Source: Glaucostegus cemiculus (lineage: Eukaryota). Taken from it: 64,000 bases of DNA. The stretch covers positions 1,364,001 through 1,428,000 of the forward strand of contig CDPCPM010000370.1 of NCBI GenBank assembly GCA_976551045.1. The letters are read 5' to 3'. Numbering within the stretch: position 1 is the stretch's first letter; every line of letters starts with the position of its first letter. A model generated the notes under the pieces. The model was not told where the DNA came from and ran no database searches. It saw nothing but the letters and a program-made list of their open reading frames with translations. A program made the position numbers and the translations under genes. Shown one piece after another: positions 10,911-60,374 of the stretch.

Positions 10911-10949
10911 GGTTTTTGTGCAGGGACTGTCATGTTCCCTATCACTGTG
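10911..10949 (-). promoter_or_regulatory. Consensus 23-RSS
   Basis: Minus strand CACAGTG + 23 nt + ACAAAAACC. Confidence 0.95.
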
Positions 10950-11389
10950 ATGCTGTGTCGCGCAGTAATACAGCGCCGTGTCCGTGCCCTCGGGGCTGTC
11001 GATCATAAAATGGCCCCGTTTGTCCACAGCGGAGAAATCCAATTTAAAGTGACCATTGTTCTCTATTCCAGCCACTACTCCCTTTATTATCCATTCCAGG
11101 CCCTTTCCGGCTTTCTGTCTGTGCCAGTACATGTAGACAACGCCGGTTGTGTCATAGGTGCAGTTCATCTGCACGGACTCCCCGCGGCGGGTGGTAAGTT
11201 CAGATGGAGACTGCAGCACTCGATCAGAGAGACATCGACCTGAAAACAAAACACAAAACAATATCCCGTGAAATTGGGCCAACGCGAATAAATATAAAGA
11301 CCGCGGGTTATTTAGCAGCATCTCCTCAACTTACATATCAGCAGCACCAGGCAGAGTGGAATGATATTCAGCTTTACCGAGCGAAACAT
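10950..11389 (-). CDS. Intact TCR V segment, family B (leader 11389-11335, V exon 11239-10950)
   Basis: MFRSVKLNIIPLCLVLLI|gtaagt, then in frame CRCLSDRVLQSPSELTTRRGESVQMNCTYDTTGVVYMYWHRQKAGKGLEWII..DTALYYCATQH, followed by a perfect RSS. Confidence 0.92.
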
Positions 11390-14287: not shown

Positions 14288-15248
14288 ATGCGTCTCCCTA
14301 CATTCGCTACTCTGTGGGTGACATTCACCATCGGTAAGAAGACAAACGTTTTTAAATTTTCACTGAAGTGCTATGGTACTTTTAACGATCCAGGCCCCCA
14401 GTCTTCGAGTGTCATGGAAAATACATGTAATGTAAATATTTAACCTGCAAGATTATAATGTCAGGAAAGATTGATCGGGATGATCTATTTTCCTTAAAGA
14501 GGCAGATAAAAGAGATCTTGCAGTTGTTGAATATGGAAAAGACATCAAGGGAAGGGTACTCACATCAGTTGGGCATAAGTATTGGATCAGTGGTAGCTGG
14601 TAAATTTGATGAAACATCAGGATGAATGTCCTCCATTATAATATGATGAACATGAGGAACACGGTACAGATGGAGTTATGGAGCCTTATTATAAGTGTTT
14701 AAAACCCATGTCTGATGTTTTAGGGAAAAGAGAATGGCAGACAAGTAGATAGGGTGAGGTTAACCTCTCTTCTGGATGGTTGTGTGAGACACATACAGAT
14801 ATTATCGTACCCTGTGAATTTCATTAAGGTTCGTAGCATGCAGATTGGTCAGTCACTGTACATATTACATTGACACTCATTGCAATTAATGCTGTTCAGT
14901 TTGAAAGCTGACATGAATTTCCCACTTAACTTCCCCTATATTCCAGGTCTCACCGATGCTGATACCGTGACTCAGCGGGAGACCTCGCTCGCGCGGATAG
15001 AGGGGGACTCCGTCACTTTGACCTGCACGTACACCAACGCAGCTTATTATTTGTTCTGGTACCGCCAATTCCCTGAAGGACGGCCCGAGTTTGTGGTCCG
15101 CCGACACACAGACGGTAGTAATGAACTTCAGGCGAATTTCGCTAAAGGCCGATTTGCTGATGCAGTCCAAGGGTCAGAGAGAGAGTATAGGTTGACCATC
15201 CCGGCCGTACGTGTGTCTGACACGGCGACGTATTACTGTGCCGAGTCT
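14288..15248 (+). CDS. Intact TCR V delta-like segment (leader 14288-14333, V exon 14947-15248)
   Basis: MRLPTFATLWVTFTI|gtaaga; GLTDADTVTQRETSLARIEGDSVTLTCTYTNAAYYLFWYRQFPEGRPEFVV..DTATYYCAES; CRE-like TGACGTAA at 14189. Confidence 0.93.
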
Positions 15249-15287
15249 CACAGTGAACGAAACTTTCGAAGTTCTCAAACAATAACT
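15249..15287 (+). promoter_or_regulatory. 23-RSS
   Basis: CACAGTG + 23 nt + ACAATAACT. Confidence 0.9.
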
Positions 15288-23850: not shown

Positions 23851-24384
23851 AGTTTTTGTACAGGCTCAAGCCCAGTCAGTATCTCTGTGGTCTCAGGGCG
23901 CAAAATATGTGGCACCGTCTCCAAGTTGTGTTTCAGACACATTCAGCAGGACGATTTGACTCTTGTGATCAAGTGTGGCTGAGAATCGATTCGCTGGATT
24001 TCTCTCCTGGTTGTGGCTATATTGGCTTTTGTGCAACAGAAACTCAATGGAACCGTGAGAATACTGACGATACCAGAATAAGTTATGTAGTTACAGTACA
24101 ATTGGTCATTGTCCCCTTCCTGCACTGTGACTGCCGCAGGTGTCTGTGAAACGGAGTCTCCCCGAGTGTGTCCTGCAACAAACGGAGCGATATTAAATCA
24201 AGCAATGTCATGGAACTGTGCCAATCCCTTGGAATATGTTGCGCCCTTGTCCCATTTCGATGCCGAATGAACTGACTGTTGAAATGTAAATGCTGTCACA
24301 ATCGTGTGCCCTTCGTGTTGCGCACTTAGTGAACTCACTGATTAAGAGAGCTGCCGCGAGACTCAATGAATAAACACCAGTCAT
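23851..24384 (-). pseudogene. TCR V pseudogene, family A paralog (leader 24384-24339, V exon 24171-23890, RSS 23889-23851)
   Basis: MTGVYSLSLAAALLI|gtgagt; DSVSQTPAAVTVQEGDNDQLYCNY/LFWYRQYSHGSIEFLL..NRFSATLDHKSQIVLLNVSETQLGDGATYF/CALR with several frameshifts; CACAGAG-23-ACAAAAACT. Confidence 0.88.
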
Positions 24385-25681: not shown

Positions 25682-25720
25682 GGTTTTTGTACGGAAAGGC
25701 TGCACAGGTGCCACAGTGTG
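25682..25720 (-). promoter_or_regulatory. 23-RSS
   Basis: Minus strand CACACTG + 23 nt + ACAAAAACC. Confidence 0.9.
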
Positions 25721-26158
25721 GGGCTCAACGCACAGAGGTACACGGCCCCGTCTGAGACGAGCGCCCCGGAGATCATTAGAAAATATGACTTCTTATCCGT
25801 GTCTAAATCGTCAGAGAAGTTGGGAGGCGAATCTGGAGACCGAGCATTCCCATCCTTGCTGAATCTCTTAAACAAATATCTCGGAGCTTCTCCGGGACGG
25901 TGGATGTACCAGAAGAGATCGGGAAATGTACGCGATGTGGAGTAAGTGCAGTTCAGTATTATGGTCTGTCCTTCCAGAACCGCTAGTTCTGGCGGATCCT
26001 GTGAAACGGTATCCTGGCCACTCGATGCTGCAACGAAACACTGAGAGTTCATTCAGTGCAGTAGAGTCTCAGATGCACAGGACATACACTGACCATTTAA
26101 ACAGAGACTCACCGGGCAGCAACGCCATCAATATCAGCAGTGAACAGGAGAAGCGCAT
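25721..26158 (-). CDS. Intact TCR V alpha-like segment (leader 26158-26113, V exon 26027-25721)
   Basis: MRFSCSLLILMALLP|gtgagt; ASSGQDTVSQDPPELAVLEGQTIILNCTYSTSRTFPDLFWYIHRPGEAPRYLF..DGAVYLCALSP. Confidence 0.93.
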
Positions 26159-32614: not shown

Positions 32615-33065
32615 ATGGAAATCTTGCTGGTTTTCACTGCGTCCGTCTGCTTACACCGTGAGTACCGTTCAGATACTTAAACATAAAACTGCACTAGTCC
32701 ATTCTGAAGTTCAAACATTGTCCGTATTTGGCCTGGTGCAAGCATTTCCCATTCATCTCCGCCCTGTGCTTAATTTCCAGTGTCTTTCTGTCGGTCGGTG
32801 ACCCAGTCCCCGATGATAGTGACCAGGGAGGAGTGTCAGTCACTCACCATCAAATGCCGTTTTCAGAGCGGTTTGGCAGATAAATTCCGGACTGGTCATT
32901 TCTTCAAACAGACGCAGCCCGGGGCAGAGTGGCAGCCGATCTCTCGGGGGGGACGGTTTGTTACGTCGACAAATAAAGCAAAAAATACCTTCACGCTTGA
33001 AATTCAGAATCTGAGAGTTGCAGACAGCGTCACCTATTACTGTCAGGCCGAGTACACGTGGAAAA
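32615..33065 (+). CDS. NAR-TCR (NTCR) V segment, VNAR-like (leader 32615-32657, V exon 32781-33065)
   Basis: MEILLVFTASVCLH|gtgagt; LSFCRSVTQSPMIVTREECQSLTIKC..FFKQTQPGAEWQPISRGGRFVTSTNKAKNTFTLEIQNLRVADSVTYYCQAEYTWK. CDR2 region is deleted as in IgNAR V (ISKGGRYVETVN..SFSLRI); extra FR1 Cys at 32834. Confidence 0.88.
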
Positions 33066-33103
33066 CACAGTGATGGACCAAGGCTCGCCTCGGTACAAAA
33101 ACT
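33066..33103 (+). promoter_or_regulatory. RSS with 22-nt spacer
   Basis: CACAGTG + 22 nt + ACAAAAACT. Confidence 0.9.
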
Positions 33104-33430
33104 CTCACTGCAGATTTTCCCACAACTGACGGGGGAAAGTGAACCTTCCGGTGAACCCCTCGCTCCATCTGCCCCTGCGCTGAGTTAAAACAGGATTGGA
33201 TCATTGCACATTATACACTGGGTTTTCTCACTGCCTGGAATGCACGGATCGTAGTCGCTTTTCTCGAGTCTGCTGTCAGTGAACGAAAATTGAAAATGAC
33301 CAATCCGACTTCCTACTCCCAATTCTAGATGCTGTTGCTGCAGATCGGAAATTTCACCGGCTGGCTTTTAACTTCTGCGCGCACGTCTCGCTGAGAGCAC
33401 GCAAATTTGAAAATGACATGAAACACCGTG

Positions 33431-33501
33431 TGGGATTGGATATTTCGGAGGGGGTATTTACTATATTTCTGGAACTGGCTCTGCGGTAACTGTCACATCT
33501 G
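33431..33501 (+). CDS. NAR-TCR J segment with D-like 5' extension (possible germline DJ join)
   Basis: Heptamer CACCGTG at 33424-33430; frame GIGYFGGGIYYISGTGSAVTVTS; phase-1 donor G|GTAAGT at 33501/2. Confidence 0.8.
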
Positions 33502-34836
33502 GTAAGTATCTGAAAATTTCTACTTTTCTCCCGCTGTCCCGGGTAATATTCTGTGTAATTTAACAACAGGACTGAACGACATCGATCTCCTTCAAATAGA
33601 AAGAGGCCTGATTGCGAAATTGTTTATTGCAAAGTGGCTCTGAAGCGATCCGGGCTGAAGGAATCACGTCTCGGTTTGAATCCAGAGAGAGGATATGCGA
33701 GGCGCCCTAGGAGCAGACGGATTGGGGATGGTGATAGACAATTAATAGTGGTCTCGCTAGCGACATCCGCGTCACCGAAAAGGAATACACGTGAAAAAAT
33801 GCACCGAGTGAAGGGGTGTAGACTACGAAGAGGGGCAATGACTAATTCACGGCGTCAGCTATCTGATATTTCCTGCAGTTGTTGTCGAAGCGTGGGAGAG
33901 AGATTTTGGTGTCGGCGCTGTTTACGGAGCAATCAGATTATCTGCAGGTGTGTGGGGATTGTCCTGCGGAGACCTATTTTGTCGGATGGGTCCACACGCC
34001 CTCGGTGTTTGAAGACTGAAAAGTAATCTATTTGCTACTCAGAAGGACGACAGAAGGAGATTGACAGGAGGGATGCTGAGCTGCGAGTGAGTCTGAATCC
34101 CCTGGGAAAACCGTAGAGTGGAACCCAGCCGACTCCTGACAGATTGTCGTACCTGTTATCGGAAGGTAAAATATGAACCGCAAACAGCACAAAATCGAGC
34201 CATATAGGTATCAAAAAGAAAGAACTGTAAATAATTGATATGAAAATAAAATTAATAAACACCCGTCTCAATTTGTGCAGAACGGGAATAAGATCTTTTA
34301 TTCCGGGTTGTGACAAAGTGCTGACCGCCGTTCCGCAGACCTTCAGTGATGTTGAATCTCACTCCTTGACCGTGGAATCTTGCCATGTAATGGACAATAT
34401 CCAAAAATGGACACATTTATGGAAAGCTCATCTATTTCTCAGAAGGAACGTACTGTTCAAATATTTATTCTAATATGTCTTTTGCAGAAGAAACATAAAA
34501 GACAACGGGATTTCTGGAGAACAGGGAAGGATAACTTGACGGGCCTGGATGCTGGCTCTTTGATTTTTCTCCACTGTTATTCTGCAATGCCTTGATTAAT
34601 TCTCATTTTCTTACAAATTTCTTCATTTTCCCTTTCATAATCACAGTCCCAGACGTCCTGTGGCAGTTTTCTCCCCCACCGCAGCAAGTCGCTGAAATAA
34701 TTACAAAGAGAAATTAGGAAAATTTGCATCGATTTTAAATGAAGAATTTTTTGCGAAACCGAAGTCTATTCCTGCTGTGACACTGACTTCGCTAAATTAA
34801 CTAAAATAATCATGATTTCTCATTTTCATTCTGTAG

Positions 34837-35138
34837 GTACAATTTCCTCGCAGTCCCAGAGATTTCAATATTCTGCCGGTGACACCGTCACCTTAAGCTG
34901 TGAATATTCCGGGTTCTGTCCGTACACAATCCATTGGTATCTGCAATTACCAGGACAGGCTCCGAAATTCCTGCTCCAGAGGCACACTTCAGGAGAGCAA
35001 GATAAGGAAAACGTGCCCGGAAGACTGATTACTGGTTCTCTCGATTCCAGCAAAAAACTCAGCCAGTTAACGATCTCCAAAGTACAACTGAACGACTCGG
35101 CTGTGTATTACTGTACAATGAGTCCTCGCACAGCACTG
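34837..35138 (+). CDS. Leaderless supporting TCR V delta of NAR-TCR
   Basis: Acceptor cattctgtAG; GTISSQSQRFQYSAGDTVTLSCEYSGFCPYTIHWYLQLPGQAPKFLL..DSAVYYCTMSPRTAL; extra CDR1 Cys at 34917; no leader exon found upstream; in frame with the J donor. Confidence 0.88.
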
Positions 35139-35315
35139 CACAGTCACATAGAGTACGGCGAGAGCCGCACAAAAACCTCAGTGTTGTGGATTACAAACAC
35201 ACAGCAGTGCAGAGCGTGGAGAGCTGTTCAAAAACCAAGGCGTGGTAAGGTACAGACACTCGGCGCAACAGAGCACGGAGAGAGCTGCACAACATCCATG
35301 GTGTGGTGGGGATTT
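35139..35315 (+). repeat. 23-RSS (35139-35177) plus two diverged tandem copies, period 59 bp
   Basis: CACAGTC-23-ACAAAAACC; CACACAG-23-TCAAAAACC (35198-35236); CACTCGG-25-ACAACATCC (35257-35297); shared gag.acgg.gagagc.gc spacer core. Confidence 0.8.
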
Positions 35316-42972: not shown

Positions 42973-43010
42973 AGTTTTTGCATTGGGAAGAGACTGATTC
43001 ATTCACTGTG
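42973..43010 (-). promoter_or_regulatory. RSS with 22-nt spacer
   Basis: Minus strand CACAGTG + 22 nt + GCAAAAACT. Confidence 0.88.
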
Positions 43011-43898
43011 AGGCTCAGGGCACAGTAGTACACCGCAGAATCTCTTAGTTGGAGATCCCAGATCGTGAGACAGGCAAGCGAATTCACTGTGTCGAATTCC
43101 GTGACGTATTCTCTTCCCAGGTACACTCCGCTCCTTTCCCGTGTGTCCCAAGACCGTCTCCACACAATTAATTGTAGAGCCTCCCCGGATATTTGTCTGT
43201 ACCAATGCCAAAAATACTCGGATGCTGCGGTATTAACGGTGCAGGCTATAGTCGCCAATTCATCTGCTTCACTTGTCTCTGAAGACTTCGTCTGAATGAC
43301 GGAATCTCCAGCACACTGACCTGTGATATTATACCAGGGTCAAGAGAAAATAAACAGACCATTAGACATTTCCAACGTTTTAATCTGATCACTCCAAAAC
43401 CAGAAACATCCATCATGTAACGTGTCTGAACAATCATCCGCTTGCAATTATAACAAATACAGTTTTCTTTTCCTTGTGATGTCGCTTGAACTTCCGTTGG
43501 GATCAAACGTTGATGTGGGGGAAGGCGAGGTAGCGAGTTCTTTAGTAACCCCGCTGACAATGACGGGGATCCATCCCAACTTACAGAGCCTGTTTTTTTT
43601 TAGACGAGAAGATCAAGTTTAACGATGAGGCCGATGTTAACTGCTCTGCACTGAACAGCCCACGGGTCTGGATTGTCCTCATCGAGGACAAACACTTCAA
43701 AGCAACCTGCGCTTCGGTCCTCCATCGCAGGATCTGTTTGAACGCACTGATCCCGAACGACTCCGGAGATTTCAGAAAAATTGGGAATGTGAGAACAAAA
43801 CATGTAACATTTGAACGAATGTATTTTTTCCCAATGATATCTGATAGATACTCACAGGTAAAGCATGCGCAAAGGATAAAAATGAGGTGCCTGTCCAT
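43011..43898 (-). CDS. Intact TCR V alpha/delta segment (probable leader 43898-43856, V exon 43320-43011)
   Basis: MDRHLIFILCACFT|gtgagt; CQCAGDSVIQTKSSETSEADELATIACTVNTAASEYFWHWYRQISGEALQLIV..LQLRDSAVYYCALSL. Confidence 0.88.
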
Positions 43899-45169
43899 CT
43901 TTCTTCCTTGGAGCAGATGGTTTCTGTGACGGGAACCTGGAGTCTGAAGACACGGACGGCTATGACAGAACGTTCATCAGAGTTGAGCTGATGCAACTGC
44001 AACTCAGTAGGTGGGATTTAGGTTTACGGGACAGTGTCCAGGTTGTCATTCACCAGCAGCCATAATCTTTGAACTTTTGCAGCGCGTTATCGCAAAACAC
44101 AACCTGTTTGAGGGAACTGCAGTTTTCTGCCTCGTTATTGGCTCTCCGAGCTCATTGTTCAGGCCCCGCCCATAGATATCCTAGGTGACGAGGTTCCATG
44201 AATGACGGTAGCAGGAGGTGCCTGCGAGTTATTCATTCGCCGAGATTATCGCTGCACGCAGTTTCACAAGGTTGAGGCGAGAGATGGTCGGTGTTTTTTT
44301 TAATTTTGCAGCGGGTCCTCAGGGTGCGATTGGGCTCAATCAGAAAACGGTGCTCTTATTCAAATCATACTGGGTATAAATTCTTATTCTAGTTCACGGG
44401 CTGGAGTGACCTGCGTCAAAGATTTCTTCGGAATGACGACTCCCTGGACTGTCCTGTCCTGCAGCATGGGACCTGAGCACCTGTTAGAACGAGAGAGTAT
44501 CCAGGGAGAGTAATCAAAAAAAAAAGAAGACAGAAAAAGCATGCGGGATCATAGCTAGGTTTCTATTGGGTTTTACTTCGGTTGAGCAGCACCAGTCAGG
44601 TGTGTTACCACGAAGGTGTGGGAGGCCTATACAGCTGTGCTCGAAACCATTCTGTTGAAAACATACTAATCTCATCATGAAGAATTACCAAGCGACAATG
44701 TGTTTTTCGTGAATGTTGATAGAATTAAATGAACCACTTGCAATAGAAACACATGCATAAAATGCCTGATGATTATGTATTCTTCCAGATTTCATTTGTA
44801 ATCGTTCACTCGACTAAGCCAATCCAACAGCAAGAGGCCCAAAACATCGCCGGCATTTTCCATGAAATTTGATTTGAGACTCCTATTCAAATGAACCTTA
44901 CTTCAGGAGAATGCTGGGAAACACTACTGACAGTGGATACATTGTAATGGGAAGCCTAGCTCTGAAGATCAGAGGACAGATCCTGAGTTATAAATCAAGT
45001 TCAGTGTGAATTCCATGATTTTAAAGATTTTCATTATTTCAGAACATAAATGTCTGATAAATGTTTTTGTATTTGTTTCATCTGTTACAGCTGAAATAAA
45101 TACGAAGGTTTGTTTTAAAAACCTGTCACCTTCCATCAGAGATATACAAAATAATACTTATAAGTCCAA

Positions 45170-48100
45170 ATGGACAACATCCACTGCCTTATCCTCATCA
45201 ATGACCTTCGTGATCTCCTCAAATTCTCAATCGCATTTGAGACACAGGACATCCCCAAAACAAAGCCATGCTGACTGCCCATAATAAATTCATGCTTTTC
45301 AAATGCAAGTACATCCTCTCCCTCAGTATTTTCCTTCTCACTGATGTATGGCTCAGCGCCATATAAATTCCCAGATTATCTCTATTGCCTATCATTAACA
45401 AAGGGATAACATTGCCAATTCTCCTGCCCCTTGGACCTCGCCTGTGGTAAAGATGATACTAAAGATCTCTTCAATCTCAATGCCTGTCTCCCTCGGTGTC
45501 CTGGGATAGATTCTATCAGGCCCTGTGAGCGATCTACATTCATATTTCAAGACACCCAACACGTCCTCGTCCATAATACAAATATGCACAAGAATATCTT
45601 CATACCCCTGCAAAATCCCTTTATCAGCCATGTTTGTCTTCTCAGTGAATACCGATGGGAAGTACTCATTTAAAACCTCTCCCGATACTTCCATGTTCCA
45701 TGCACAAATTCTCTCTTCTTTTGCTGAGCGGACCCACAATTTCTCTCTCTACCTTCTTGCTTTTAATATTCGTATAACAAATAAAATGTCTGGTGAGACT
45801 TGTGAATACGTCTCGGCAAGTTTACCTCATCGGCCCTTTACGGCCCCTTATTCCTTGTTTTATATCTTCTGCAACTTTCTTTTTATTCCACCAGGGCCTT
45901 GTCTGATTTCAGCTTCTTAAAACTTATCAATATTTTCTTTTGTATTTTGTCTAACCAGATCGTATGTCCTCGCACCCAAAGTCCCAGAGCCTTGTCATCC
46001 TTCTCTTTCGGCCGCATTGGGACATGGTGGCCCTGAACGCAAATAAGGCTGCGTTAACAAAGAATCCCACATATTAAACGTGGATTTACCCTCGACTGAA
46101 GAGCATCTCACGATCGAATTTCCCCAGTTTCTGCTTAACACTTCTTTAATAAGCCTGCCTCCAATTCAGCATTTTATCCCAGGAGAACTCTTCACCTTCT
46201 CTCCAACATCTTAAAATTTAAGAAATTAAATTTGCTATTCCTAACATGCTGACAATCTGAAACTTCCATCAACTGGCCAGGCTCATTATCCAGTACAATA
46301 TTTAGCACAGCTTCCTCTCCATTTGGACTGTCTACGTGTTGTTCAAGAAACCCTCCTAGTAGGATCTAACGAATGAATTCTGTCGCTTCTAAGCCCCTGC
46401 ATGTAATGAGTCCCAAAGGACATTGGGCAAATTAAAACTACCCTTCAAAGAACCAGTTACTTTTACATCTATCCATGATCTACCTTCACATCTGCTCCTC
46501 CATTTCCTCCGAGCTGTTGGGAGGTCTGTGATATAATCGCATCCATATGATTACACCTTACTGATCCCAATACACATTCACTCACTGGATGAAGATTCTA
46601 AGATGTCCTCTCGAAGTGAAGTCGTGACATTCTCCATAATTAATGATGCATCCCCACCTGGTTTTCATCCCTCTTTGTCCCGTACGAAACCTCAACGCCC
46701 TCGAACGTTGAGCATCCTTCGCTCACCCAAGTTTATACAAATGGTTTCAACGCCGCGGTTCCATGAACTAATTGAAGACCTGAGCTCATCTGCTTTACCA
46801 GTTATACTCCTTGCATTATATAAATAGTCGTTAGACCGTCAGAACCGCCGTCTTAATGAATCTAACCTGTCTGTTCTTCCTTTCCGATTTACTTGTCTTA
46901 ACCTGTACCTTCTTGTTAATCTCTCCTCCTCCTGATCTACTGCTCCAGTTCCCATCCCCTTCCACACTGGATTAAAATTTCTGAGTAAATATAGGAAACC
47001 TCACTGCAAGGGTATTGGTGCACTCCCAATCCCCCCCCCCCCCAAGTTTAGGAGCAAACTATCCTCTTCGTGCAGATTGCATCTGCCCAGTTATGCAGGT
47101 CTCCGAAGCCTTTCCTCCTGTTCCAGCTCTCTCCCCTCGTATTAATCTGTTCTATTTTTCTATTTCTCGCATCGTAGATATAAAAAAAAAACGGCAGAGG
47201 TCATAATCTCGAGACTGTATGCCGAGAGGCCCAGCTTTGTAACTTTCCACCAAATTCCCCTCTCAGGTCCTCGACTCTCTTCCTGCTGGCATGTACTACC
47301 AAAAGAGACTACGATCTCTGTCTGTTCACCTGCCCCTTTCAGCGTGTCGCGCCTGCTCAGAGACATCTAAGACTTTGACGCCATCAGTAAAATCACCCTC
47401 CTGAAGTAACTCCAGAGGCATCAAAAAGTCCACTTCTGCCTTCCCCTTTGAGTCCCCTGTCACTACTCTTCGCTGACACTTCGACCCTGTCTGCTGCACA
47501 ACAGAGCCATTCGTCGCAACTGTGATTTCTATTATTTTCATAATACCTTCAACACCAGCGAAGATCTGCTCATTATCAAACGCATTCCCGAATAGATAAG
47601 GTACCCATCAACTCAAATTTCTCTGGAGCACAAACCTAGCAATTCCAATTGTTGACCATACGGATCTTATTCCCCGTATTATTCTAGTAAACCTTCTCTG
47701 AACTGCTGACAATCAAACAACATTCTCAAAGAATTGCAATAAGTCGGTCAACATGATTTATCATTGAGAAAAGCACCCCCAATTACCCTTATTAAGTTAC
47801 ATAGAACATGGAACAGCACAGCAGAGGAACAGGCCGTTCGGCCCACGCTATCTATGCCGAACACAATGCCACACAAAAATCTCTTCTGTCTGCATGTGAT
47901 CGATATGCCTGTACACCTTGCATATCCATGCGCCCATCTAAAAGCCTCTTAACCGTCACTAATGCACATGTTTTCACAACTGCCGCCGGTAGCCCCTGCT
48001 CTGCACCTCTCTCTACAAAACACTTGCCTCACATATCACCTTTAAAGTCCCCGACCTCGTCTTAAATGCATGTGCTCGAGTAGTTGATATTTTACACAGA

Positions 48101-48500
48101 GATAAAGATCCTGACTTTCTACCCTTTCTTTATTCTCAGAATTTTATAGATTTCTATCAAGCCTTCCCTCAGACTCCCACGCTCCAGTGAAAACAACCCA
48201 AGTTTGTCCAACTTCGCCTGATAGCTCACACACTATCATATGAGTACACCTCATCTGTACCTTCAGAAAACCTCTAGTTCCTTCCTGTAATGGGGGGCCA
48301 GTGTTACATACACTACGATAAGTGCGGCCAAAGCAAGTCTTCCATAGCTACGGTATGATTTTCTGAATCTTGTATGATATGTCCCGACCAAGAAAGGTTT
48401 ACCACCCTATCCACATGCGTGGCAACTTTCAGGCAGCTATGGGCTTGGAAAACAAGTTCGTTCTTTAAATAAAGTAGTTTAGGGTCCTGCCATTTCTGTC
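45170..48500 (-). mobile_element. Decayed CR1-clade LINE segments
   Basis: EVLNEYFPSVFTEK..GPDRIYPR..; CR1-like 3' region at 47790-48500. Confidence 0.7.
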
Positions 48501-48689
48501 GCATGTTTCTGTCGCATGTGGTGTTTAAGCAATCACACACATTGGGGACACCGCTTGTTTGCACAAACAGCACCCCAAAATCGTATGGGAAAGCGAAACC
48601 CAAACAACGGTACAAATATTTTTATTTTGATATGGTCCATTCAACAGTATATTACATGTAGTAGGTAAAACATAGATCACATCATTTCA

Positions 48690-49215
48690 GAGACTCATCT
48701 GTCTCTCTCTGTTCATCGATTTCTCTCACTCTTTATCTCTGTCTATCCTTCNNNNNNNNNNNNNNNNNNNNNNNNNNNNNNNNNNNNNNNNNNNNNNNNN
48801 NNNNNNNNNNNNNNNNNNNNNNNNNNNNNNNNNNNNNNNNNNNNNNNNNNNNNNNNNNNNNNNNNNNNNNNNNNNNNNNNNNNNNNNNNNNNNNNNNNNN
48901 NNNNNNNNNNNNNNNNNNNNNNNNNNNNNNNNNNNNNNNNNNNNNNNNNNNNNNNNNNNNNNNNNNNNNNNNNNNNNNNNNNNNNNNNNNAGCTATCTGG
49001 CTGTCGATCTAGCTAGNNNNNNNNNNNNNNNNNNNNNNNNNNNNNNNNNNNNNNNNNNNNNNNNNNNNNNNNNNNNNNNNNNNNNNNNNNNNNNNNNNNN
49101 NNNNNNNNNNNNNNNNNNNNNNNNNNNNNNNNNNNNNNNNNNNNNNNNNNNNNNNNNNNNNNNNNNNNNNNNNNNNNNNNNNNNNNNNNNNNNNNNNNNN
49201 NNNNNNNNNNNNNTC
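48690..49215. repeat. (CTAT/CTGT)n microsatellite with N gaps
   Basis: tctc/ctat-rich flanks around two N runs. Confidence 0.65.
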
Positions 49216-52200
49216 GATGTCAATATCCATAAATATATCAATATCATATCGACTTATCAAGTCACCTGTATTCCTTCGGGTTTAACAAAGGAATACGGAC
49301 ATTTGTGCAGTGGTCATTTGGTCAGAGATTCAACTGAGAGAGAAGCTGTAAAGAATGGAAAGTCATCCACGCCTCTTGTCAATTATATTGAATTTTCAGT
49401 GGCTCCCCTTCTTCCATAATTGCCTTAGTCCAGTTTGTGCAATAAAACTCATCTGTGGAATACGCGATTTCGTCGTGATTATCAAAGACGTTTGGGTTTT
49501 TGTTGGGGTGAGGGTGGTTTACCTTAAACCGTAACTTGAACTAGCTCAATAAGGCCGAGTGAAATAAATAAATGAGAAGGACACCTTTAACAGTGACCAA
49601 TTTTAGTTCACCCGTGAGAAACACGCAAATCAGCACAGATACTGGAAATCTGAAATGAAACGAAAACGCTGAGAATGGGAACCAGCAGCTGATGGCAAAT
49701 CAAAGTTATCTTTGATTATCACATAATGGAACTGTGATTTCACCATGGTTAGTCAGTTAACATCTAATATATGCAATGGCTGGGTCCAGTGCAATAATGG
49801 CTCGGTCCCTTGCAATCTTGGATGGGTCCAGCGTCACATCGTCTTAGCCTGGGGTCACATAAATTACTCGAAATTAACCAGACACTGCAGCAGTTAACAT
49901 CAGAATGTGCTCAAAAAAAGGAAACACCTTCAGATGGAGAGAAGCAGGGTGAGAGGTTATTTGATAGATGTGCACAAACGAATAAGCGGCAGAGATCAGG
50001 AAGACAGAAAGAAACTTATTTTTATTCCAAGAGGAAAATGGCTCAAACGAGGTGGGAAAACTTTAAGGTGAATAGAGAATGGTGTGGAGGAGATGACGGA
50101 GGTAAGTTATTATACAAAGAGTGTTGGGTACCTGGAACAAACTGCCTGCAGAGGTGGTGGAGGCAGATATATTGGAGACATTTAAGAGACTCTTAGAGAG
50201 CCGTAGGAATGATAGATGGAAATAGGGTCCATTAAAGATCAATGACTTCGACTATCTGTTGAGTCACATGAGATGGGTGAATAAAAACCGAATATTCTTC
50301 ATCTGCTTTTAAATGTAAAATGACACCAATGCCATAGAACGCGGGGAAGTTAATGGTAATATCTTCAGGAGTGTTCACATTACAGAAGAGTAGGTACCTT
50401 GTCAAAGGCCTTGCTGAGGTCCATGCAGACAACGAGCCATATTACAGAGATGAGGTGCTGCAGGTCCTAAAACGTCTAAAGTTAAATTCTTCCCCGGGGA
50501 CTGATCAACTGTATCATTGGACATAGCTGGGAGGTGGGAATGAAATTGCAGTGCCTCAATCGAATATATTTACGACATCGATAGTCACGGGTTATGTGCC
50601 GCAAGACTGGAGGGTGGCTAACTTGGTGCCTTCATTTAAGAGGTGGTTGCAAGAAAAGACCTGCGAGCTCCAGACTGGTGAGATTCACGTCAGTGTTATT
50701 GGAGGGGTGAAACTAACGTCATGTAATTTGACGGGATTTTGAGGGCCAGGATCTACACGCATTTGGAAAGGGAATGACTGATTAGGTATAGTTATAGAAC
50801 TTAAACATAAATCGTTAGATAACTAATCGATCAAGTTGCCAATCAGTTTCTGAATCCTCTTTTTGCCTTGCACTAAATCGTTTTTCTCACCTGCTCCTTT
50901 CCAATTTTTTCTGGTTTTTTTTCAGCTGTTTTTCTTTTGTCCATTGGATCGAGAGAAACGGTGGTTTCAGTTTTCATCAAACTAAGCAGCTGGCATTCGT
51001 CAATAAAACTACATATTTGCTCATGTGTGGGGCCTTCCTCGGGGTTGCAGCGCTATCTGCGTCTCAGCTGGGGGTATCTCTCTGCTGCAGTGCGTTGTTG
51101 GGGTAGAGCCCTCAGAACAAGGCCAATATCTCTATATCTCAAATGAATCTTCTTTCCAGTCAAGTCCTTTCCCCAGGGCCACTTAAGAGGAGAGACTACT
51201 TGAATGGATTGCATTCCTTGGGATGCAATATCATCGCACTTTGTCGCCGAACACGGGATTTATTCGCAGTTCTCTTCCCACCCCCTCCCCTATTGTCTCG
51301 GGGCCTTCGGAATCAGTTCTCAGGACGTTGGTGTTTTGAGTCCAGGCCCATAATGTGAGCGCTCATTTTTTTCTGGAATCTTTTCTCGCGTTGATATATC
51401 TTCTCTAAAAAGAACACCTTTTTTATCAATCCATGAGGTCTTTTATTATTTGCTGGAACCGGCCGTTCTTAGTAACAGACCAGTTGACTTTGATGAACCG
51501 TAATTATAGTGGAGATTCTGAGCTGCTTCCTGGTAATAATTTCATCCCGGGCACCCAAAAAATGGTTCAAGAAAAAGTGACTTCAGACACTTTTCCTTGA
51601 GCCGTATTATTAAGTGTCCCGGGGAAGGAACGATGTCTGCTGCATTCCTAAAATTTGGAATCAAGCGCAACCAGACAAGAAGGAAAGGATAACTTGGGAA
51701 AATTATCCCAGTGTGAGGGTGAACCAAGACGGAGGCGACATGGAGAAAGGAACAGACAAAAAATTGATCTCTGTGCAAATTAATTTTTATTGATACTTTC
51801 ACACAAAACATTCTATACAGAAGGTTTGGAATATTTTAGGTAAAGCGCACAGTTCTACTGTATTTCACACTAAAAACGGAGTTTGAGCGGCGAATTCTCG
51901 GTCAAATTTCAGATGAAACGTCGTAAGGAAACGAAGCAAGGGTAGGGGGCGTTCTCGGGTCTGCATAAGCACCAGGAACTATTTCGACTCATACAAGCTG
52001 GATTCTCTGTGATCTATTCATATCACAGGCAGGGCAATCAGTGGAATGCAAGCAAGTATGAGAGGAGAATAGAAAGGCGTGCAACAAGCTTCAGAAAAGG
52101 AACTCAGCTACGTGCAGGCTCAGTCTTTTTCAATCAGAGATGTGTCATCAGTTCCACAGAGAACATTGGCATGGTTCCATTATCTATATTTTTGTGAAAG

Positions 52201-52559
52201 ATGAAAATAACAAATTGAGGTCTCACTGCGAACAGACTGTGCTGTCAGTTCTCTGTAGGTTAATTGGATACCAGAGAAACGGAAGGCCGGTGTCATCGTG
52301 GAAAATCAGGAACACATGTTAATAAGCAATGAAAGCGTCCACTTATTTACACATGGCATATAGTTTTGAATTATCACACAATTACTTGAATTAAAGGGGT
52401 GGTCAAAGACAGCTCATGCTTGAATAAGCAATTCGTGCAGAGACTGAAATTCAATTCATGTTATTGAAATTTTCTGATTGGCAGATTTTCATTCACTTCA
52501 GCCCAGATGTCAATTGACCGGGAAGATAAATAAATCCACGGCTTTGTACTTCCAAACCA

Positions 52560-52568
52560 TCACTTTAC
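52560..52568 (-). CDS. IGHM: IgM TM2 exon (VK-stop)
   Basis: ccttcttttatAG|GTA AAG TGA, which completes a KVK cytoplasmic tail. Confidence 0.85.
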   Translation of the reverse strand, partial: VK

Positions 52569-52693
52569 CTATAAAAGAAGGACAGTGAAAATAGCACATC
52601 AATCGTCTGAGACGTCAATGCCAGGATAAAATGTTCGATATTTGTACATCATCTTCAGATACACTGAAGGCTGAGTAGAGCAAATAATCTCAC

Positions 52694-52821
52694 CTTCACT
52701 AAAGTCAGTACGGCGCCGTAGGAAATGCTCAGAAAGAACAAGATGATGAATGTGGAAGCGGTTGTCCAGATGTTGTCTCGATCCTCCTCATCACCTTCAA
52801 CTCGGATGCTGACTGAGTGAT
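52694..52821 (-). CDS. IGHM: IgM TM1 exon
   Basis: DHSVSIRVEGDEEDRDNIWTTASTFIILFFLSISYGAVLTLVK|gtgaga; CART-type transmembrane motif. Confidence 0.95.
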
Positions 52822-53487
52822 CTACGGAAAGCAGAGAACGAAATACATTCACATGGTCATCTGGTCCAGGATAAGGTTTCCTTAGTTTTATTTATTCCCA
52901 ACCAACATACTATTCTATCCGGCAGTTTAATTTGCCATGGTCTTCATATGTCAAGGACTTCATCCTCAATAATAACTTACAACAATTAATGCCAGTTCTG
53001 GTGACATAAGTTGTTAATTCTTTCAACGTTCAGCTCTTGAATATTAAGAAGTCTTAAACCTTGTGGGACACAGGTTGATACCAGTTATTTATGTGAGAAT
53101 TTTCCAAAATTATTTGGAAAATGTAAATGCTATTGTGGGAATGAACTCACTGGACCCAACATTTTTGTTACCATTAACGTGCAATAATTCACACCTGAGA
53201 AGCGAGCTGGGCAATTTCCAGGATCAGAGCAGAGAGCGATGTGAGGTTGACCACAACGATGTGCATTTAAAATAGAATTTTGATCGACATTGTCTGATAA
53301 TATGATTTGGGTAATGTATTTCCGGAATCGATTTTATGGAGATAATGCCTCTATAATCGCATGTTCCGTTGTCTGTTATGAACATCAATCTTTCTTTAGT
53401 GTGCCTGTAACGGCATTGAAGCAATTTTTTCAGCGTAATTTTTTCTGAGTATTGATCCTTTCATTTCGTGTTGGTGCATGGTTGCAA

Positions 53488-53565
53488 GTGTGTGTTTGTG
53501 TGTGTGTGTGTGTGTGTCTGTGTCTGTGTGTGCGTGTGTATGTGTGGGTATGTGTGTGTGTGTGT
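53488..53565. repeat. (GT)n microsatellite
   Basis: Direct observation. Confidence 0.95.
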
Positions 53566-55009
53566 TGGAGTATGACTGACACTTTGATCTTGATGGTGTG
53601 TGTTTCTCGACATGAGTGTCTGAGGTTATGAAGCGTCTGTCCTAGCTTCAGTCTGCATTATCTTGTGAGAAAATGAATTTCCTACGCAAATATGCCTGTT
53701 GGTGTGCTCTGGATGTGTAGATTTTGGCTTGCGCGTGTATGATTGATAATCAGTGTGCATGATTTCGTGTTGGGTTACTGCAAGGTTTAAGCTCACATAT
53801 GTGTATTTCGGTCCGCTTATGTTTACGTTTCTCCGAATGTCTTATGTTTGCAAATATATCATCCCATGTTAATCTCGGCCCAAACTCCGTGTACCTACTT
53901 GAATCTCACATCTGTTAATTTCTCCACTCGGTTAAGACTATTGCATAGTCTAGAGTACATTTGATGACGGGAACGTACTTCTGGAGTTTCTTGCCCTCAC
54001 ACAAGAGATCTCTCGACGTTAGTCTCAAAAATGAGCCCTTTATCCGCATGTTATACCACATTTTTTCTCTAAAGCGTGGAAACATATTGATACAGCAGAA
54101 TTGTTGGAGTCTTTCTCTGCTCCTCACTGCCATAAATATTATGAAGAAAATCACACGTACCCGAAGTATACGGACAACATTATGTCATTTATTTGTTTTA
54201 ATCTGAACTGATGTCTGAACGTTTGTGCTTGTGTGTGCGCACATGCGTGCGCGCGCGTGTGTGTGTGAATATATGTGTGTTTGTGTGCACACTCACGTCT
54301 GTGTGTTCGTGTTTTCGCGTGTGAATATTCTTGAAATTGTGTTCATATATGTTCGTTATATTTAATTGCGGTCTGCACATGTATGTTTGTTGACCTACTT
54401 CTGAAACCATGTTTCTCTGCTTGTGCGCATATATACGTGATTGGTCAAAAAGTTTAAAATAACCTTTGCTGAAGGGTTTAGCATCAATTACTAGATGTCA
54501 CATCGATGGCGTTCAATATAATCCGTTTCATGGTAGTATTTTATATAATTTCGTCAATGTGATGTACTAAACCTTGAGTTAATTTGCATTTCAGAATATG
54601 TGTGGAAATCTCGTCCCTCTTGTTATAAAACTGTGAGCAACAATGGGTGGGCAGTTGCGCTTTTCTGCCTCACCCCCAGGAGTGGGACGTGTATGTTCCA
54701 CTTTATTTTCTTGTCGTGGCGCTCTCTGCAAACCACAGTGGCTGAGATACTTCTACAGGTCTGAATAGACGGGAACCAAGAGAAACACGAAAACGTACTT
54801 CCAGAAGTTTGGAAACGAATTCCGCAACAAGAACAATGGTGCTCGTGTGTGTCCGGGAATCGTACAATGACAGAGCTGTTCCCTTTTTTTGTTCTTTTCT
54901 TTGGGGCACCCGTTTCACCAACTACGACACACTCAGGTAAATAAACGTTTTGTCAATATAAGGAAACAATTATGTGGTCTTGGGATCAGTTCATCATTGG
55001 AAGAAAATA

Positions 55010-55015
55010 TTTATT
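55010..55015 (-). terminator. Polyadenylation signal of secretory mu
   Basis: AATAAA on the minus strand 35 nt after the tailpiece stop codon. Confidence 0.75.
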
Positions 55016-55050
55016 CGCATTCATTCAAAAACAATGGAATTAAGAGATTT

Positions 55051-55442
55051 TCATTGACAAGAATTGACAGTGTCCATCAGAACAAGGGAAACATTTACAA
55101 AACTGGGTTTACCGCTGGACCAATTGACTGTTCTAGCGATGGTCTTCATGGGGAAGGTTTCGTGCCCCACCACACAGGAGAAAGAAGCGCCGCTGGCCCA
55201 ATGCTCTGCCCCGACGGATAACAGGCTGAACATGAAGAAAGAGGTGTTGCCGTTCTCCGCCTGCACCTCGGTGTTCATATAGTTGCGCGAATCTATTGGC
55301 TTGTCATCGACCGTCCACATGACAAAGATCCGGCGAGGAGAGAAACCTCTCACTAAGCAGGTGAGGGCGACGGATCTCTGAGCGGAGACATCCTCTGTCG
55401 GCGGAAGGAGGACAGAGATGGACGGTTCTCGAGGATGTACCA
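55051..55442 (-). CDS. IGHM: IgM CH4 plus secretory tailpiece
   Basis: [42 protein letters not shown]|GTAAAC (membrane-form donor at 55113/2), then [19 protein letters not shown] with NVS glycan site and penultimate Cys. Confidence 0.96.
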
Positions 55443-56413
55443 CTGCAGAACAATTGGGAGAATATTTATTACAGCGGGAATTAACGACACGAGAAGCTGA
55501 TAGATTCAGAATTGAAGGAAATGTAATTTGGGCAAAATATTAAATGTATTACATTTCAAGTTTTTGAATGATCTCTGTTTCTCAGTTCTGGAATGTGAAG
55601 ACGGGGTGGAGAGATTTGATTGTTTCCAATGCAAGATAGAAGGTTTGTAAGAATGTGTTACATGAACCGAAGAATGAGATTATTCCCTCCCCCTCATCAA
55701 TGCAGGTGTTGATGCCACAAGGTCGCCTGCTGCCACTTTTATCAAATATCGCAATTGCATTTCTTGTCTGGGCCGCTTGTCTCTCTCAGGTGTCAATATC
55801 CCCTGAGGTAAATTTTATCAGAGCCCCAACTGTTTGTTCGTGGAACCACCACTGTAGTTGCCTGCGTGTTTAATTTTGGACTATGCACCAACGCTTCAGG
55901 AAATGAAATTTCAAAAATGTAGTTGATGGAAATCTAAAATAAAGCCAGACACTGCCGCAGAGGCTCTGTATGCCAGACTCCGCGTGTGAAAACGAAAAAC
56001 AGAGTTAACATTTCAGGTCGTAGACTCTGCTTGATAAGTCGTAAAGACGAAAAAAGAAACAATGTATTTGAACTTGCAAAAATGGTGGCAAATGGATATA
56101 TTGGAGAAAGTGAATCTAAAGTTGGGAATTCGGAGAGTGAGAACATAAACAACGGGAAAAATCAACAAATTCCCGTCTGATTTGTCTGGCTTTGGCTTGC
56201 TGCACTGTTATAACAAGGACTAAGGATAAGCCGAAGAACATCCCGGACTATGTCTGAACAGAATACAGACACGGAGTAGATATCTAGTATTCCACCTTCA
56301 GATGACCTATTTCAGATATCCCATAACTGCAGCTTCATTATAGATTTTCAGGTAACTCGCTTTCGCTGTCTATTTCAGAACTAGTCATTGAACTGCAAGT
56401 GATACTGACTCAG

Positions 56414-56414
<1 letters not shown>

Positions 56415-56463
<49 letters not shown>

Positions 56464-56482
56464 GGTGTCTGTGTGTGCGTGT
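56415..56482. repeat. (CT)n then (GT)n microsatellite
   Basis: Direct observation. Confidence 0.9.
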
Positions 56483-56859
56483 GTTTCCAGAAACTGATCT
56501 GCTGCGCAGAACTCACAAAGCAATTATTTGCAACACATTGCCCCTCTTTCTTTGTGTTCTCATGCGCTAAATGCCCATTCAACAATTTGACTTTTCTTCA
56601 ACAGCTTATCCCCATGATAATCCTGACTTCACCCTCCCGTGTTTTTTTCCTTCGCCTATCCATACCTCTTCCCACCTTCCCTGCAACTTACCACTTGTTT
56701 TCTCTCATTCAAAATCCCGACGAACACGTTTGATGAAACATCAGCATTGATTTCCTTTCCGCAGATGTTGCCTGATCTGCTTGGATGTCTTAACCTTTTT
56801 TTTGCAGAACTCTCACCCCCGTCCACTCCACAAACCCCATTCTACAAACTGACCCTCAC

Positions 56860-57168
56860 CTTCTTCCTTGCGGATGGAAGCCCTTTTCGGAGTCGGCATT
56901 TCCTCGTGGCTCACCACGCATTCGAACACATCACCACTCAGCCAAGCTTGTGTCGAAATATTCAGGGTGCTAATCACGCTGTCGATGGACTGTCCGGTCT
57001 GGAGGTTGATATCTGATTGCAATTGATTCTTTCCTTGCTTCCAAGTCACTTGGACGCCATAAGGTGCATGAGAGATGATGCAGGTTAAGGTCACGGTCGC
57101 CTCCAGTAAGACCTGCTCCAGCTGCGGTGGCTTAATTGTAACCTGTTCTTCTTCGCAGGAGTTTGGAT
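56860..57168 (-). CDS. IGHM: IgM CH3 exon (309 nt, intact)
   Basis: [62 protein letters not shown]; AG/GT boundaries. Confidence 0.95.
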
Positions 57169-57417
57169 CTGAGTCAAATGAACATAAAACCAAGCTTCAA
57201 CGGCAAAAACAGCAATGCAATATTTATCCTCCGAGCTCTAAGTAGAGACAAGATCGCTTCCTGGCACCAGAAAACGGTTGTGACCACGATCCATCTCTGA
57301 CTAGAGAACATCACCCATGCAAGGTCGCGGGTTGTCCCAATGTCAGTGAAGTTCTAACTTCGACTGAAGTCGGCACTCACAGTGAGACTTGTGGGTTTCC
57401 TTGCATGCGTCTCTGAC

Positions 57418-57728
57418 CTTGAGAGATGCTGATGTTTCGGCTCTGCGTGTCAATTTTGTGAGTGACCTAGCAGGTATAGACTGAACCACTGAACCATTCT
57501 GCGGCGGAGAATGTCACCTGACTCATTGCAGAGAAGTTCCCGTTCACCTCAAAGGGGAAGAGGTGACGATGCCCGAATTCAGGGTCTGTCCATTCTTCAG
57601 CCAGGTCACGGTCAGTTGCGCCGGACGGAATTCGGTGATGGAACACACGGCGGTCACTTTTCTGCTTCTGTTTATTTCTTCCAGGGAATTCACGGTGATA
57701 AAGACGATTGGATGATGTACCACAAGAT
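57418..57728 (-). pseudogene. IGHM: IgM CH2 exon, disrupted
   Basis: 311 nt, not a multiple of 3. DLVVHHPIV..AVCSITEFRPAQLTVTWLKNG..VTSS, 1-nt deletion at ~57555, then FEVNGNFSAMSQVT..EWFSGSVYTC*VTH with TAG at 57469-57467. Confidence 0.92.
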
Positions 57729-58374
57729 CTTCAAGAAAACACACTTAATTGGTCACAGATCATTGAGGAAGAAAATAATTTACTGTCTCAAAGTGTTCAA
57801 TGCAAACAAGAAACGAATTCATTGGATTTTTCTTTCACGCAACGTAACGTCTCTCCAATTCACCTGAATATCTACAGCTTTCTACTCACAGCAGTTACCA
57901 TGGTGCCAATAAATAGTGAAGTCATCAAGATGCCTCACAAATTTCTGGTAAATGGGTGTAATGTTGATCTGCAGTTCATTGTCGACAAGAAAGTCATGAA
58001 CCGCAGGGTATGTTTCTGCACTGTTCGTTTCTTCGTGCAATGATTCTAAGGGTCCCCGTTATCTCTGAATAAGGTTGCATAAACGTCTCCGTGTGTTGGC
58101 GACATCAACAATTCATTTTATATCTGGATTGATACGCCTGTCCTGAATAAGAATGGATGTGCCTCCAGTTGAACTTTCTCCCCAAACAAAGGTCTTTAGG
58201 TCATGCAAACTCGTGAAGCCCCTCACAATGTCAGGAACTGTTTATCCTTACTCGCAAAAAGAAAAGCCAGGTGCTTCATCTTTCTGTGGCGCTCACATCC
58301 CACTGATCTGCGAAAGGCCTCGCCGTCAATATTTCCTCTTGATACCCAGAATTCAAGCTGTTTCCATAGAAGAT

Positions 58375-59770
58375 CGGAAACTACAGCACTGGACAGGCCA
58401 TTCGGCCTATGATTTAGTGCTGATCTTGATGTCAGTTTACACTAAATATTCCTGTTTGTATTATCCATCCCCCTCCGTTTCTTTCATATTTATGTGCCCA
58501 TCTAAACTCATCCTAAATTTCACCATACTGCCTGTTTCCACCAAACAACTACCCATGGTAATTTGTTCCGAGCATCATCCACTCTTTGCCTGAATACTTT
58601 CCCCTCACGTATCCTTTAAACTTCCCCAGCCAAACTTAAAAGCATGTCTTGTGGTATTCCACATTTCTACCCCGGGGAAAAGATCTTGACTGCCTCGTCT
58701 ATCATTACACTCCATAATTAAAAAAATAAACACTTATCGGTCTCCCCCAGCCTCCAACGCTCTGGGGAAAACAACCTGACTTTGTCCAAACTTTCCCAGC
58801 AGCTCGTAACAGATAATCCAGGCAGTCTCCTGGTAAAACCCGTCAGCGCCCTCTCCACAGTCTCCACGTCCTTCCTAAAATCGGGCGACCTTAACTGCAC
58901 GCAATATTCCAAGTACGATCTGACTAAAATTGTATATAGCGAACACTATTATTTCATTACTCTAATACTCATCTCCACTACCAATTCAGACAAGCATGCC
59001 ATACTCTTTCTCACCGCTTTATCTATTTCCGTAGCTAATTTTAGTGAATTATCAGCCTAGACCACAGGATCCCTCTGTACCTCAATTTTATTGAGGGGCC
59101 TCTAACTATGTGATTTCGCTTTTTATTTGACCTCCCAAAGTGTAACACATTGTACTTAAGCGGATTAAACTCAATCTGCCATTTCTCTTCGCATATCTGC
59201 AGCTGATCCTGTATACTGCTGTATTCGTTGGCAGTCCTGTACCATGTCCACAAGTCAAACAAACTTGCTTTCCACTCATCTACATTTTCATCCAATTCAT
59301 CGATATATATCACACTTAAAAGCCGTCCTAGCACCGATTTTTTGCAGGACATCATTCGTCAGGGACTTCCATCCGGAATAACAGAATTCCATCGAAGCCA
59401 GTTCTGAATCTAAACTTGCAATTCGCCATGGATCCCAATGCATTTTTATCTTCCGAATCAATCAGCCATTTGTACCCTTTTAAAAACCATTACTAAATTC
59501 CATATATATAACGTCCACAGCCTGAACCTCATCAAGCTTCTTTGTCACCTCCTGAAGAAATTCGATTAAGTTTGACCTGTTGCGCACAGCCATGTTGACA
59601 GTCCCTAAGCAGGCCATGCCTTATCAAATCCATATAAATCTTATCCCTCAGTGTCCACTCCAATAGGTTCCCGACCACTGAAGTCAGGCTCAGTGGCCCG
59701 TGGTTAACTAGATTATCCATATTTCCCTTCGTGAACAAAGGCACAACATTTGCTGCTCCCCAGTCATCTG
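58375..59770 (-). mobile_element. CR1-clade LINE fragment in the CH1-CH2 intron
   Basis: PLFTKG..PLSLTSVVGNLLE; SVLGRLLSVIYIDELDE; EYCVQLRSPDFRKDVETVER. Confidence 0.85.
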
Positions 59771-60077
59771 CGACCTATTTGTCGTTATTTTGAGGATAGA
59801 ATTATGGGAAATGATCAACATGTCATGCACGCTACAGCTGTGTGCCCTGCATTTCATCAGTTTTATGGAAAACCGAATCATACCTGTTAAAACTAAGCAG
59901 TGTATGGAGGTCAGAACAAGGTGCTGTAGGTTCAATGTGGCATGGAGAATAGAACCGTTATAACAGGGTGAGTTAATTATGATTAATTTTCCGTCGAATT
60001 GCAGCACATATTCTCCAGCTGCCGCTCCTCGCACTCTCCATACAATGAGCGGCCCCACTGCTCACCCCAACACTAAC

Positions 60078-60374
60078 CGGGCATTTTCACTTCCTTGTCT
60101 GTATCACGGTACCGAACCATGCAGAAGATGGAGCTGCTCCTCGCCTCTGACTCGGTGATGGTGAGTTGGCTGATGCGTGTGTACGTTCCCTTCTTGTTGA
60201 ACACTGGCGGGTAGGTCTTCAGTCCGGTGGTAACCGGGACATTATCTTTCTTCCAGGAAAAGCTGATGCCCGTTGGATAGTAGTCCATTGCTAAACAACC
60301 GAAGGTGACTGAGTCGCCTGGACTGGGTTGTTCGCAGGAAAAGAGAGGGCACAGGGTGGGGGCGGAAGGTGAAG
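60078..60374 (-). CDS. IGHM: IgM CH1 exon (297 nt, intact)
   Basis: [72 protein letters not shown], typical of chondrichthyan C-mu-1. Confidence 0.95.

Follow-up and report, generated by a model that had tools for sequence, protein, structure and literature searches.

A damaged IgM minicluster nested inside the T cell receptor alpha/delta V array of Glaucostegus cemiculus

[quoted passage not shown] In our judgement this minicluster, cluster 8, is very probably one of 17 that sit inside the TCR alpha/delta V array and was probably inactivated recently, its heavy-chain V segment (VH) serving at most as an occasional, opportunistic donor to TCR delta. It is a new and well-resolved example of a published layout: linkage of the immunoglobulin heavy-chain (IgH) and TCR genes, and their interleaving, are already in print in the text and Table S1 of PMC12227049.

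The C half of cluster 8 lay within the window and comprised four C exons, a secretory tail with a penultimate Cys, and the two transmembrane (TM) exons TM1 and TM2, the composition of an IgM minicluster:

52560..52568, minus strand: mu TM2 exon (Val-Lys-stop), aligned to the other clusters
52694..52821, minus strand: mu TM1 exon, open
55051..55442, minus strand: Cmu4 exon plus secretory tail, open, with a Cys-Gln-stop end
56860..57168, minus strand: Cmu3 exon, open
57418..57728, minus strand: Cmu2 exon, broken
60078..60374, minus strand: Cmu1 exon, open (PF07654)

The exons of CH1, CH3, CH4, the tail and TM displayed normal splice sites and no lesions, while CH2 (the Cmu2 exon) had three: (i) a 1-nt deletion at about 57555, inside a short C run; (ii) a nonsense TAG at 57467-57469, where most copies read CAG; and (iii) the donor GTCAG, in place of the GTAAG (14/16) or GTGAG (2/16) of the other clusters. 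GTCAG was also present after CH1 of cluster 13. The preliminary description had noted that IgH clusters with defective C regions occur in the shark TCR alpha/delta locus; cluster 8 has such a region (CH2 frameshift plus TAG), and this broken CH2 had been overlooked there.

The remaining half was found where the same description had expected it, beyond position 64000: annotation of VH-D-D-JH placed JH, D2, D1, VH and leader 2.4-4.2 kb past the window end (C370:1,430.4-1,432.2 kb), with leader and VH both open. D1 lay ~420 bp after VH and had 12/22 recombination signal sequences (RSSs, designated by spacer length), D2 followed ~400 bp further, its 5' side bearing a 12-RSS and its 3' RSS being degenerate, and JH had a 23-RSS; this V-D-D-J conformed in spacing to the minicluster rule set out in PMC5192425 (a single VH, two D and a single JH, spaced at 250-500 bp and carrying 23/12, 22/12 and 12/23 RSSs, upstream of one C gene). 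The VH RSS read CACGATG-23-ACAGGAATA, its heptamer retaining CAC; the commonest VH RSS among the clusters, CACGGTG-23-ACAAGAACA, was off-consensus too, and the cluster 8 nonamer had four consensus mismatches, the maximum among the 10 of 17 VH RSSs called directly after a V. JH contained an in-frame TAG just ahead of its Trp and was 6 nt shorter than most. With a frameshift and a TAG in CH2 and a further TAG in JH, cluster 8 lacked the full set of open exons and the usable JH of a functional IgM, and the CH2 and JH lesions leave no normal four-domain chain from it. The window CH1 and the cluster VH resembled shark IgH models, the homologues found were mostly shark proteins, and the cluster layout was of the cartilaginous-fish type.

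The 17 IgM clusters were distributed over 367-2,038 kb of C370, 13 on the strand of the TCR delta C gene (Cdelta) and four on the opposite one, all of them inside the V array and interleaved with TCR and NAR-TCR V segments. A genome-wide CH4 search (150 of 531 candidates scored, its counts being lower bounds) gave 17 matches at 73-100% identity, all on C370 between 370 and 2,024 kb, while the other 121 of the 138 listed matches had ≤45% identity and lay on other contigs; the IgH-like C matches outside C370 are on unscaffolded contigs. A CH1 DNA search recovered 16 clusters, the deleted CH1 of cluster 9 not being picked up. Because all 17 detected clusters lie in the V array, this is the main IgM locus of the animal, nested in that array, and the window holds a broken member of it. 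Clusters 8, 9 and 10 were clearly broken, while the others were open in most exons looked at, which falls short of a full audit.

The architecture of C370 is that of a TCR alpha/delta locus: Calpha is followed by Jalpha (88 motifs), Cdelta, Jdelta, Ddelta (two segments) and, last, the V array enclosing the IgM clusters. The C region of the database chain P0003 matched one C exon at 198 kb, with a TM exon at 196 kb, on the minus strand (Cdelta, 196-198 kb), and a second TCR-type TM exon was located at 53.6 kb. Between 30 and 310 kb there were 97 joining (J) motifs, 88 between the two TCR TM/C sites and nine upstream of the 198-kb exon, and two diversity (D) segments with 12/23 RSSs, the 5' spacers being 12 bp, were located at 229.4 and 229.9 kb. 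PDB sequence searches gave antibody chains for the most part and had no discriminating value; the labels Cdelta and Calpha are therefore based on the architecture of the locus and its TM motifs, and are presumed here.

V-like matches on C370 began at 238 kb and reached 2,847 kb, those of TCR type running from 314 to 2,847 kb (146 matches from 150 of 460 candidates scored, some off C370). The examined DNA contained 145 V-like places, 134 of them within the IgM block; best hits to window-derived and local queries typed these as 17 IgM VH, 24 NAR-type, four orphan VH-like and 89 other TCR-type segments, in a count that omits 830-960, 1,260-1,264 and 1,968-1,998 kb. The 24 NAR-type best hits were mostly on the plus strand. 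VH-like V segments with no adjoining IgM C, which are TAILV-like candidates, were seen at 237.7, 260.1, 610.5, 1,131.9, 1,137.7 and 1,191.1 kb of C370.

Against this map, the adjacency that had drawn attention to the window is ordinary, being due to the position of all 17 detected IgM clusters in the V array. The TCR V segment concerned had the following parts:

42973..43010, minus strand: RSS of the TCR-type V (CACAGTG heptamer, 22-bp spacer, nonamer GCAAAAACT)
43011..43320, minus strand: TCR alpha/delta-type V exon, open frame (Pfam V-set PF07686)
43856..43898, minus strand: leader exon of this V, with GT donor and ATG at 43898

This segment displayed the features of a TCR alpha/delta V: a split leader, an open V-set exon, an RSS with a 22-23 spacer, and a position on the same molecule as, and upstream of, Ddelta, Jdelta and Jalpha. 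The top database match of its V exon was a V-J-C chain (P0003), the one whose C region matches Cdelta of the contig. From the TM2 stop (52560) to the leader ATG (43898), both on the minus strand, there were 8,662 bp, in agreement with the ~8.7 kb first estimated. The proposal that an IgM constant region adjoins the TCR alpha/delta V array thus stands as to linkage on one contig and falls as to position, for cluster 8 is nested inside the array and not at its edge; a cluster-at-edge reading was rejected, since all 17 clusters lie inside. A TCR-type V was located ≤15 kb from TM1 in six of the 17 clusters. With cluster 8 only one of 17 inside the array, and most others having open C exons, proximity is no reason to pick this cluster as the donor.

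Two N stretches, already reported at 48.7-49.2 kb of the window, do lie between the TCR V and the IgM exons; outside the window, the 1,800,000 bases of C370 examined had an N count of zero. An N-free paralogue ~1.0 Mb away (C370:409.3-431.2 kb) repeated TCR V and IgM exons on one diagonal at 64-75% alignment identity (offsets: TCR V block -997,506; TM block -997,627; CH4 -997,548; CH3/CH2 -997,323; CH1 -998,053), with a V-to-TM1 distance of 9,252 bp against 9,367 bp in the window. No collinear alignment covered 44.1-50.9 kb, so the paralogue supports order and spacing, not every base. A misjoin between the two parts appears unlikely from this comparison, and the reading was rejected because the N-free paralogue had the same order and spacing.

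The arrangement on C370 resembled the elasmobranch antigen receptor complex (AgRC), for which Table S1 and the related text of Flajnik et al. 2025 (PMC12227049) give IgM miniclusters on the V side of the TCR delta/alpha C genes with TCR alpha/delta V and NAR-TCR V between them, some IgM marked pseudo, and Ig-like V nearest Cdelta; on C370, too, IgM and TCR alpha/delta were linked, and V of TCR type as well as NAR-TCR V stood between the clusters. The AgRC linkage group as published also takes in IgW, IgNAR, PSMB5 and UrIg2. Entries in that table include (i) great white shark chr27, where TCR and NARTCR V are interspersed with IgM, some of it labelled pseudo, and (ii) Hypanus sabinus (Atlantic stingray) chr26, with the order TCR V, IgM, NARTCR V, IgM pseudo, IgM, Ig-TCRd V, Cdelta, Calpha and IgW. 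The tabulated complexes consist of automatic gene models (four stingray IgM rows) and are described, in that part of the paper, as closely linked, some TCR V standing between clusters, whereas C370 is one contig holding all 17 detectable IgM clusters in the V array with RSSs and lesions resolved. A literature search found no further title or abstract start pointing to a full map of IgM in the V array, subscription journals being outside its scope; Ott 2021, Deiss 2019 or the supplement of PMC12227049 may hold an earlier explicit statement of the nesting or of defective-C donor clusters.

The damage to cluster 8 likely came late. Mean pairwise ratios of nonsynonymous to synonymous substitution rates (dN/dS) were computed, and trees built, for 14 of the 17 clusters (9, 10 and 17 having broken or divergent VH or C were omitted). 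Cluster 8 had values of 0.26 in CH1+3+4 (others 0.26-0.31), 0.25 in CH2, for which 102 of the 104 codons were retained (others 0.24-0.40), 0.34 in VH framework (others 0.25-0.39) and 0.43 in whole VH (others 0.26-0.42). These values indicate that the C exons stayed under constraint along most of a long branch and that VH is no better kept than C, which fits a recent loss, and among these 14 clusters pairwise dN/dS, a blunt measure standing in for a branch-specific test, gave no sign of VH being retained while C decayed in cluster 8.

Several points weigh against recent, simple inactivation. Pairwise dN/dS is an average over the history that clusters share, and its power for the final stretch of a branch is low; the lesions come from a single assembly, the frameshift standing in a short C run; and they were concentrated in CH2 and JH, about 1.5 kb of other coding sequence being clean, where the post-hoc chance of at least three of four lesions falling in any one exon is ~0.09, a weak hint of non-random decay that leaves slight room for a CH2-skipping form. 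The trees did not place cluster 8 as sister to cluster 2, so that a recent simple block duplication cannot explain the shared spacing, which must be old.

The VH of cluster 8 and Ddelta-Jdelta-Cdelta were in cis and shared a strand, the Ddelta 12-RSS lying ~1.2 Mb downstream, and the IgH-TCR delta linkage proposed for this locus is real. By the rules of V(D)J recombination, a V with a 23-RSS joins a D with a 12-RSS, and joins on the same strand delete the intervening DNA. Old duplications of blocks containing IgM plus TCR V would have scattered the clusters among TCR and NAR-TCR V segments. V-D-D-J joining in B cells would proceed within each cluster, and the chain from cluster 8 would be truncated. 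RAG in T cells could join the cluster 8 VH to Ddelta through a deletion of ~1.2 Mb, a route open to any V of the array, and whenever a distal Valpha is joined to Jalpha by deletion, that allele would lose every IgM cluster. Trans-rearrangement of IgHV to TCR delta, together with TAILV segments, is reportedly known from the nurse shark (Criscitiello 2010, Deiss 2019 and Ott 2021 are the works said to treat it). Like the IgHV of that system, the cluster 8 VH has a 23-RSS that could be joined to the 12-RSS of a Ddelta within its locus; unlike TAILV, which lack a D-J-C of their own, it keeps its D-D-J-C, for which reason TAILV membership was rejected. The geometry of a donor was present (VH 23-RSS in cis with Ddelta 12-RSS), with an RSS off-consensus. 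Judged from the sequence, use of this VH on Cdelta may occur, although we lean against it. Clusters 1 and 2, ~150-200 kb from Ddelta and with near-consensus nonamers, and the orphan VH-like segments, those at 238 and 260 kb in particular, are better donor candidates. A search for longer proteins with the Cdelta exon of this genome, aimed at VH-Cdelta chimeras, gave no hit among the 68 candidates, a weak result given a database sparse for these genes; no sequencing run was listed for the VH-D-D-J stretch, which speaks neither for nor against such use, and no chimeric transcript was seen.

A stronger form of the donor idea holds that the antibody role was lost and that VH has been under selection because T cells join it to Ddelta-Jdelta-Cdelta. 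It draws on the open leader and VH beside a broken JH and CH2, on the CAC-bearing 23-RSS that faces the Ddelta 12-RSS on the same strand, and on the joining of IgM/IgW V to TCR delta D, described as common in sharks in PMC12227049 and PMC5931798, the latter also being the background for chimeras of IgH V with TCR delta. CH1, CH3, CH4 and TM nevertheless equalled VH in intactness and constraint, which leaves no VH-specific retention; moreover, the cluster 8 VH RSS was the furthest from consensus of those called, and the better candidates just named are nearer Ddelta. We therefore regard a dedicated donor as improbable and prefer recent inactivation with, at most, opportunistic use.

Far less probable is a three-domain IgM, in which the dead CH2 would be skipped by splicing CH1 to CH3, convergent on nurse shark IgM1gj, which is germline-joined, expressed and without CH2 according to PMC5192425. 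Three of the four lesions, the changed donor included, fall in CH2, none affects CH1, CH3, CH4, tail or TM, whose splice sites are normal, and cluster 8 shares with IgM1gj the lack of a usable CH2. Yet CH2 dN/dS (0.25) was not raised, the JH stop precedes the Trp and its escape requires ~8 nt of trimming, the GTCAG donor recurs in cluster 13, and cluster 8 has a V-D-D-J split with RSSs and a broken CH2 exon still in place, while IgM1gj is germline-joined; membership in the IgM1gj type was rejected on account of the split segments. An assembly artefact, be it a V/IgM misjoin or consensus errors feigning a broken cluster, could appeal to the two N stretches and to a frameshift inside a homopolymer, and is very hard to credit when the N-free paralogue keeps the V-to-TM1 spacing on one diagonal, V segments alternate with the other 16 clusters in DNA that has no N, and two separate stops and a JH 6 nt short are not homopolymer errors.

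Nested recent inactivation leaves room for a broader proposition, which we offer as doubtful: that the whole IgM repertoire is a passenger in the V array, so that trans-rearrangement would amount to long-range cis joining (13 of the 17 VH by deletion and four by inversion), that distal Valpha-Jalpha joins would excise IgM in alpha-beta T cells, as they do TCR delta, and that clusters dying at JH and CH2 would be in transit to V-only (TAILV-like) donors. The layout gives a plain geometric account of how T cells of sharks and rays can borrow antibody V segments, and it raises the regulatory question of how RAG would be kept to a single minicluster in B cells when the same 2.6 Mb would be scanned as one V array in T cells. 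The general point dates from a 2025 publication; this genome adds a fully resolved map (17 clusters, strands, RSSs and lesions), with which donor use can be tested directly, as can the excision of IgM in alpha-beta T cells.

A cassette of NAR-TCR type and four other V segments of TCR type were also present in the window, none of them in the preliminary description:

32780..35177, plus strand: NAR-TCR-type cassette, composed of a NAR-type V with 22-RSS, a J-like element (~33430-33501) and a supporting Vdelta with 23-RSS
25682..26030, minus strand: TCR-type V, open, with RSS
23851..24200, minus strand: TCR-type V pseudogene, frameshifted, with RSS
14949..15287, plus strand: TCR-type V, open, with 23-RSS
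10911..11260, minus strand: divergent V segment, open, with consensus 23-RSS

The V-J-V composition of the cassette matched shark models P0006 and P0008, and its strand was opposite to that of Cdelta, so that joining would be by inversion. The V at 10911-11260 was short and divergent, with a framework 2 of W-x-R-Q...G-L-E-W, and three such best hits were located within the IgM block.

Further variation was seen among the other IgM clusters: (i) the neighbours at 1,465-1,481 and 1,514-1,530 kb were also damaged, making three broken clusters in a row with that of the window (internal CH1 and CH2 deletions with a damaged VH; a VH frameshift); (ii) four clusters were partly germline-joined (D-J at 430 kb, VD and DJ at 743 and 1,291 kb, and VD at 1,946 kb); (iii) the distal cluster at 2,021-2,038 kb had a different leader and a VH 46% identical to that of cluster 8 (others 57-70%); and (iv) cluster 6 (1,302 kb) had no aligned TM2, with repeat-like unrelated sequence after TM1, and may be secreted-only. 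Outside C370, contigs C97, C117, C615, C628, C868 and C900 harbored many near-identical IgH-type terminal C exons with ~40% identity to Cmu4, and on most of them internal C exons repeated at a period of ~1.6 kb, which suggests a large homogenised IgW-like family or duplicated haplotigs.

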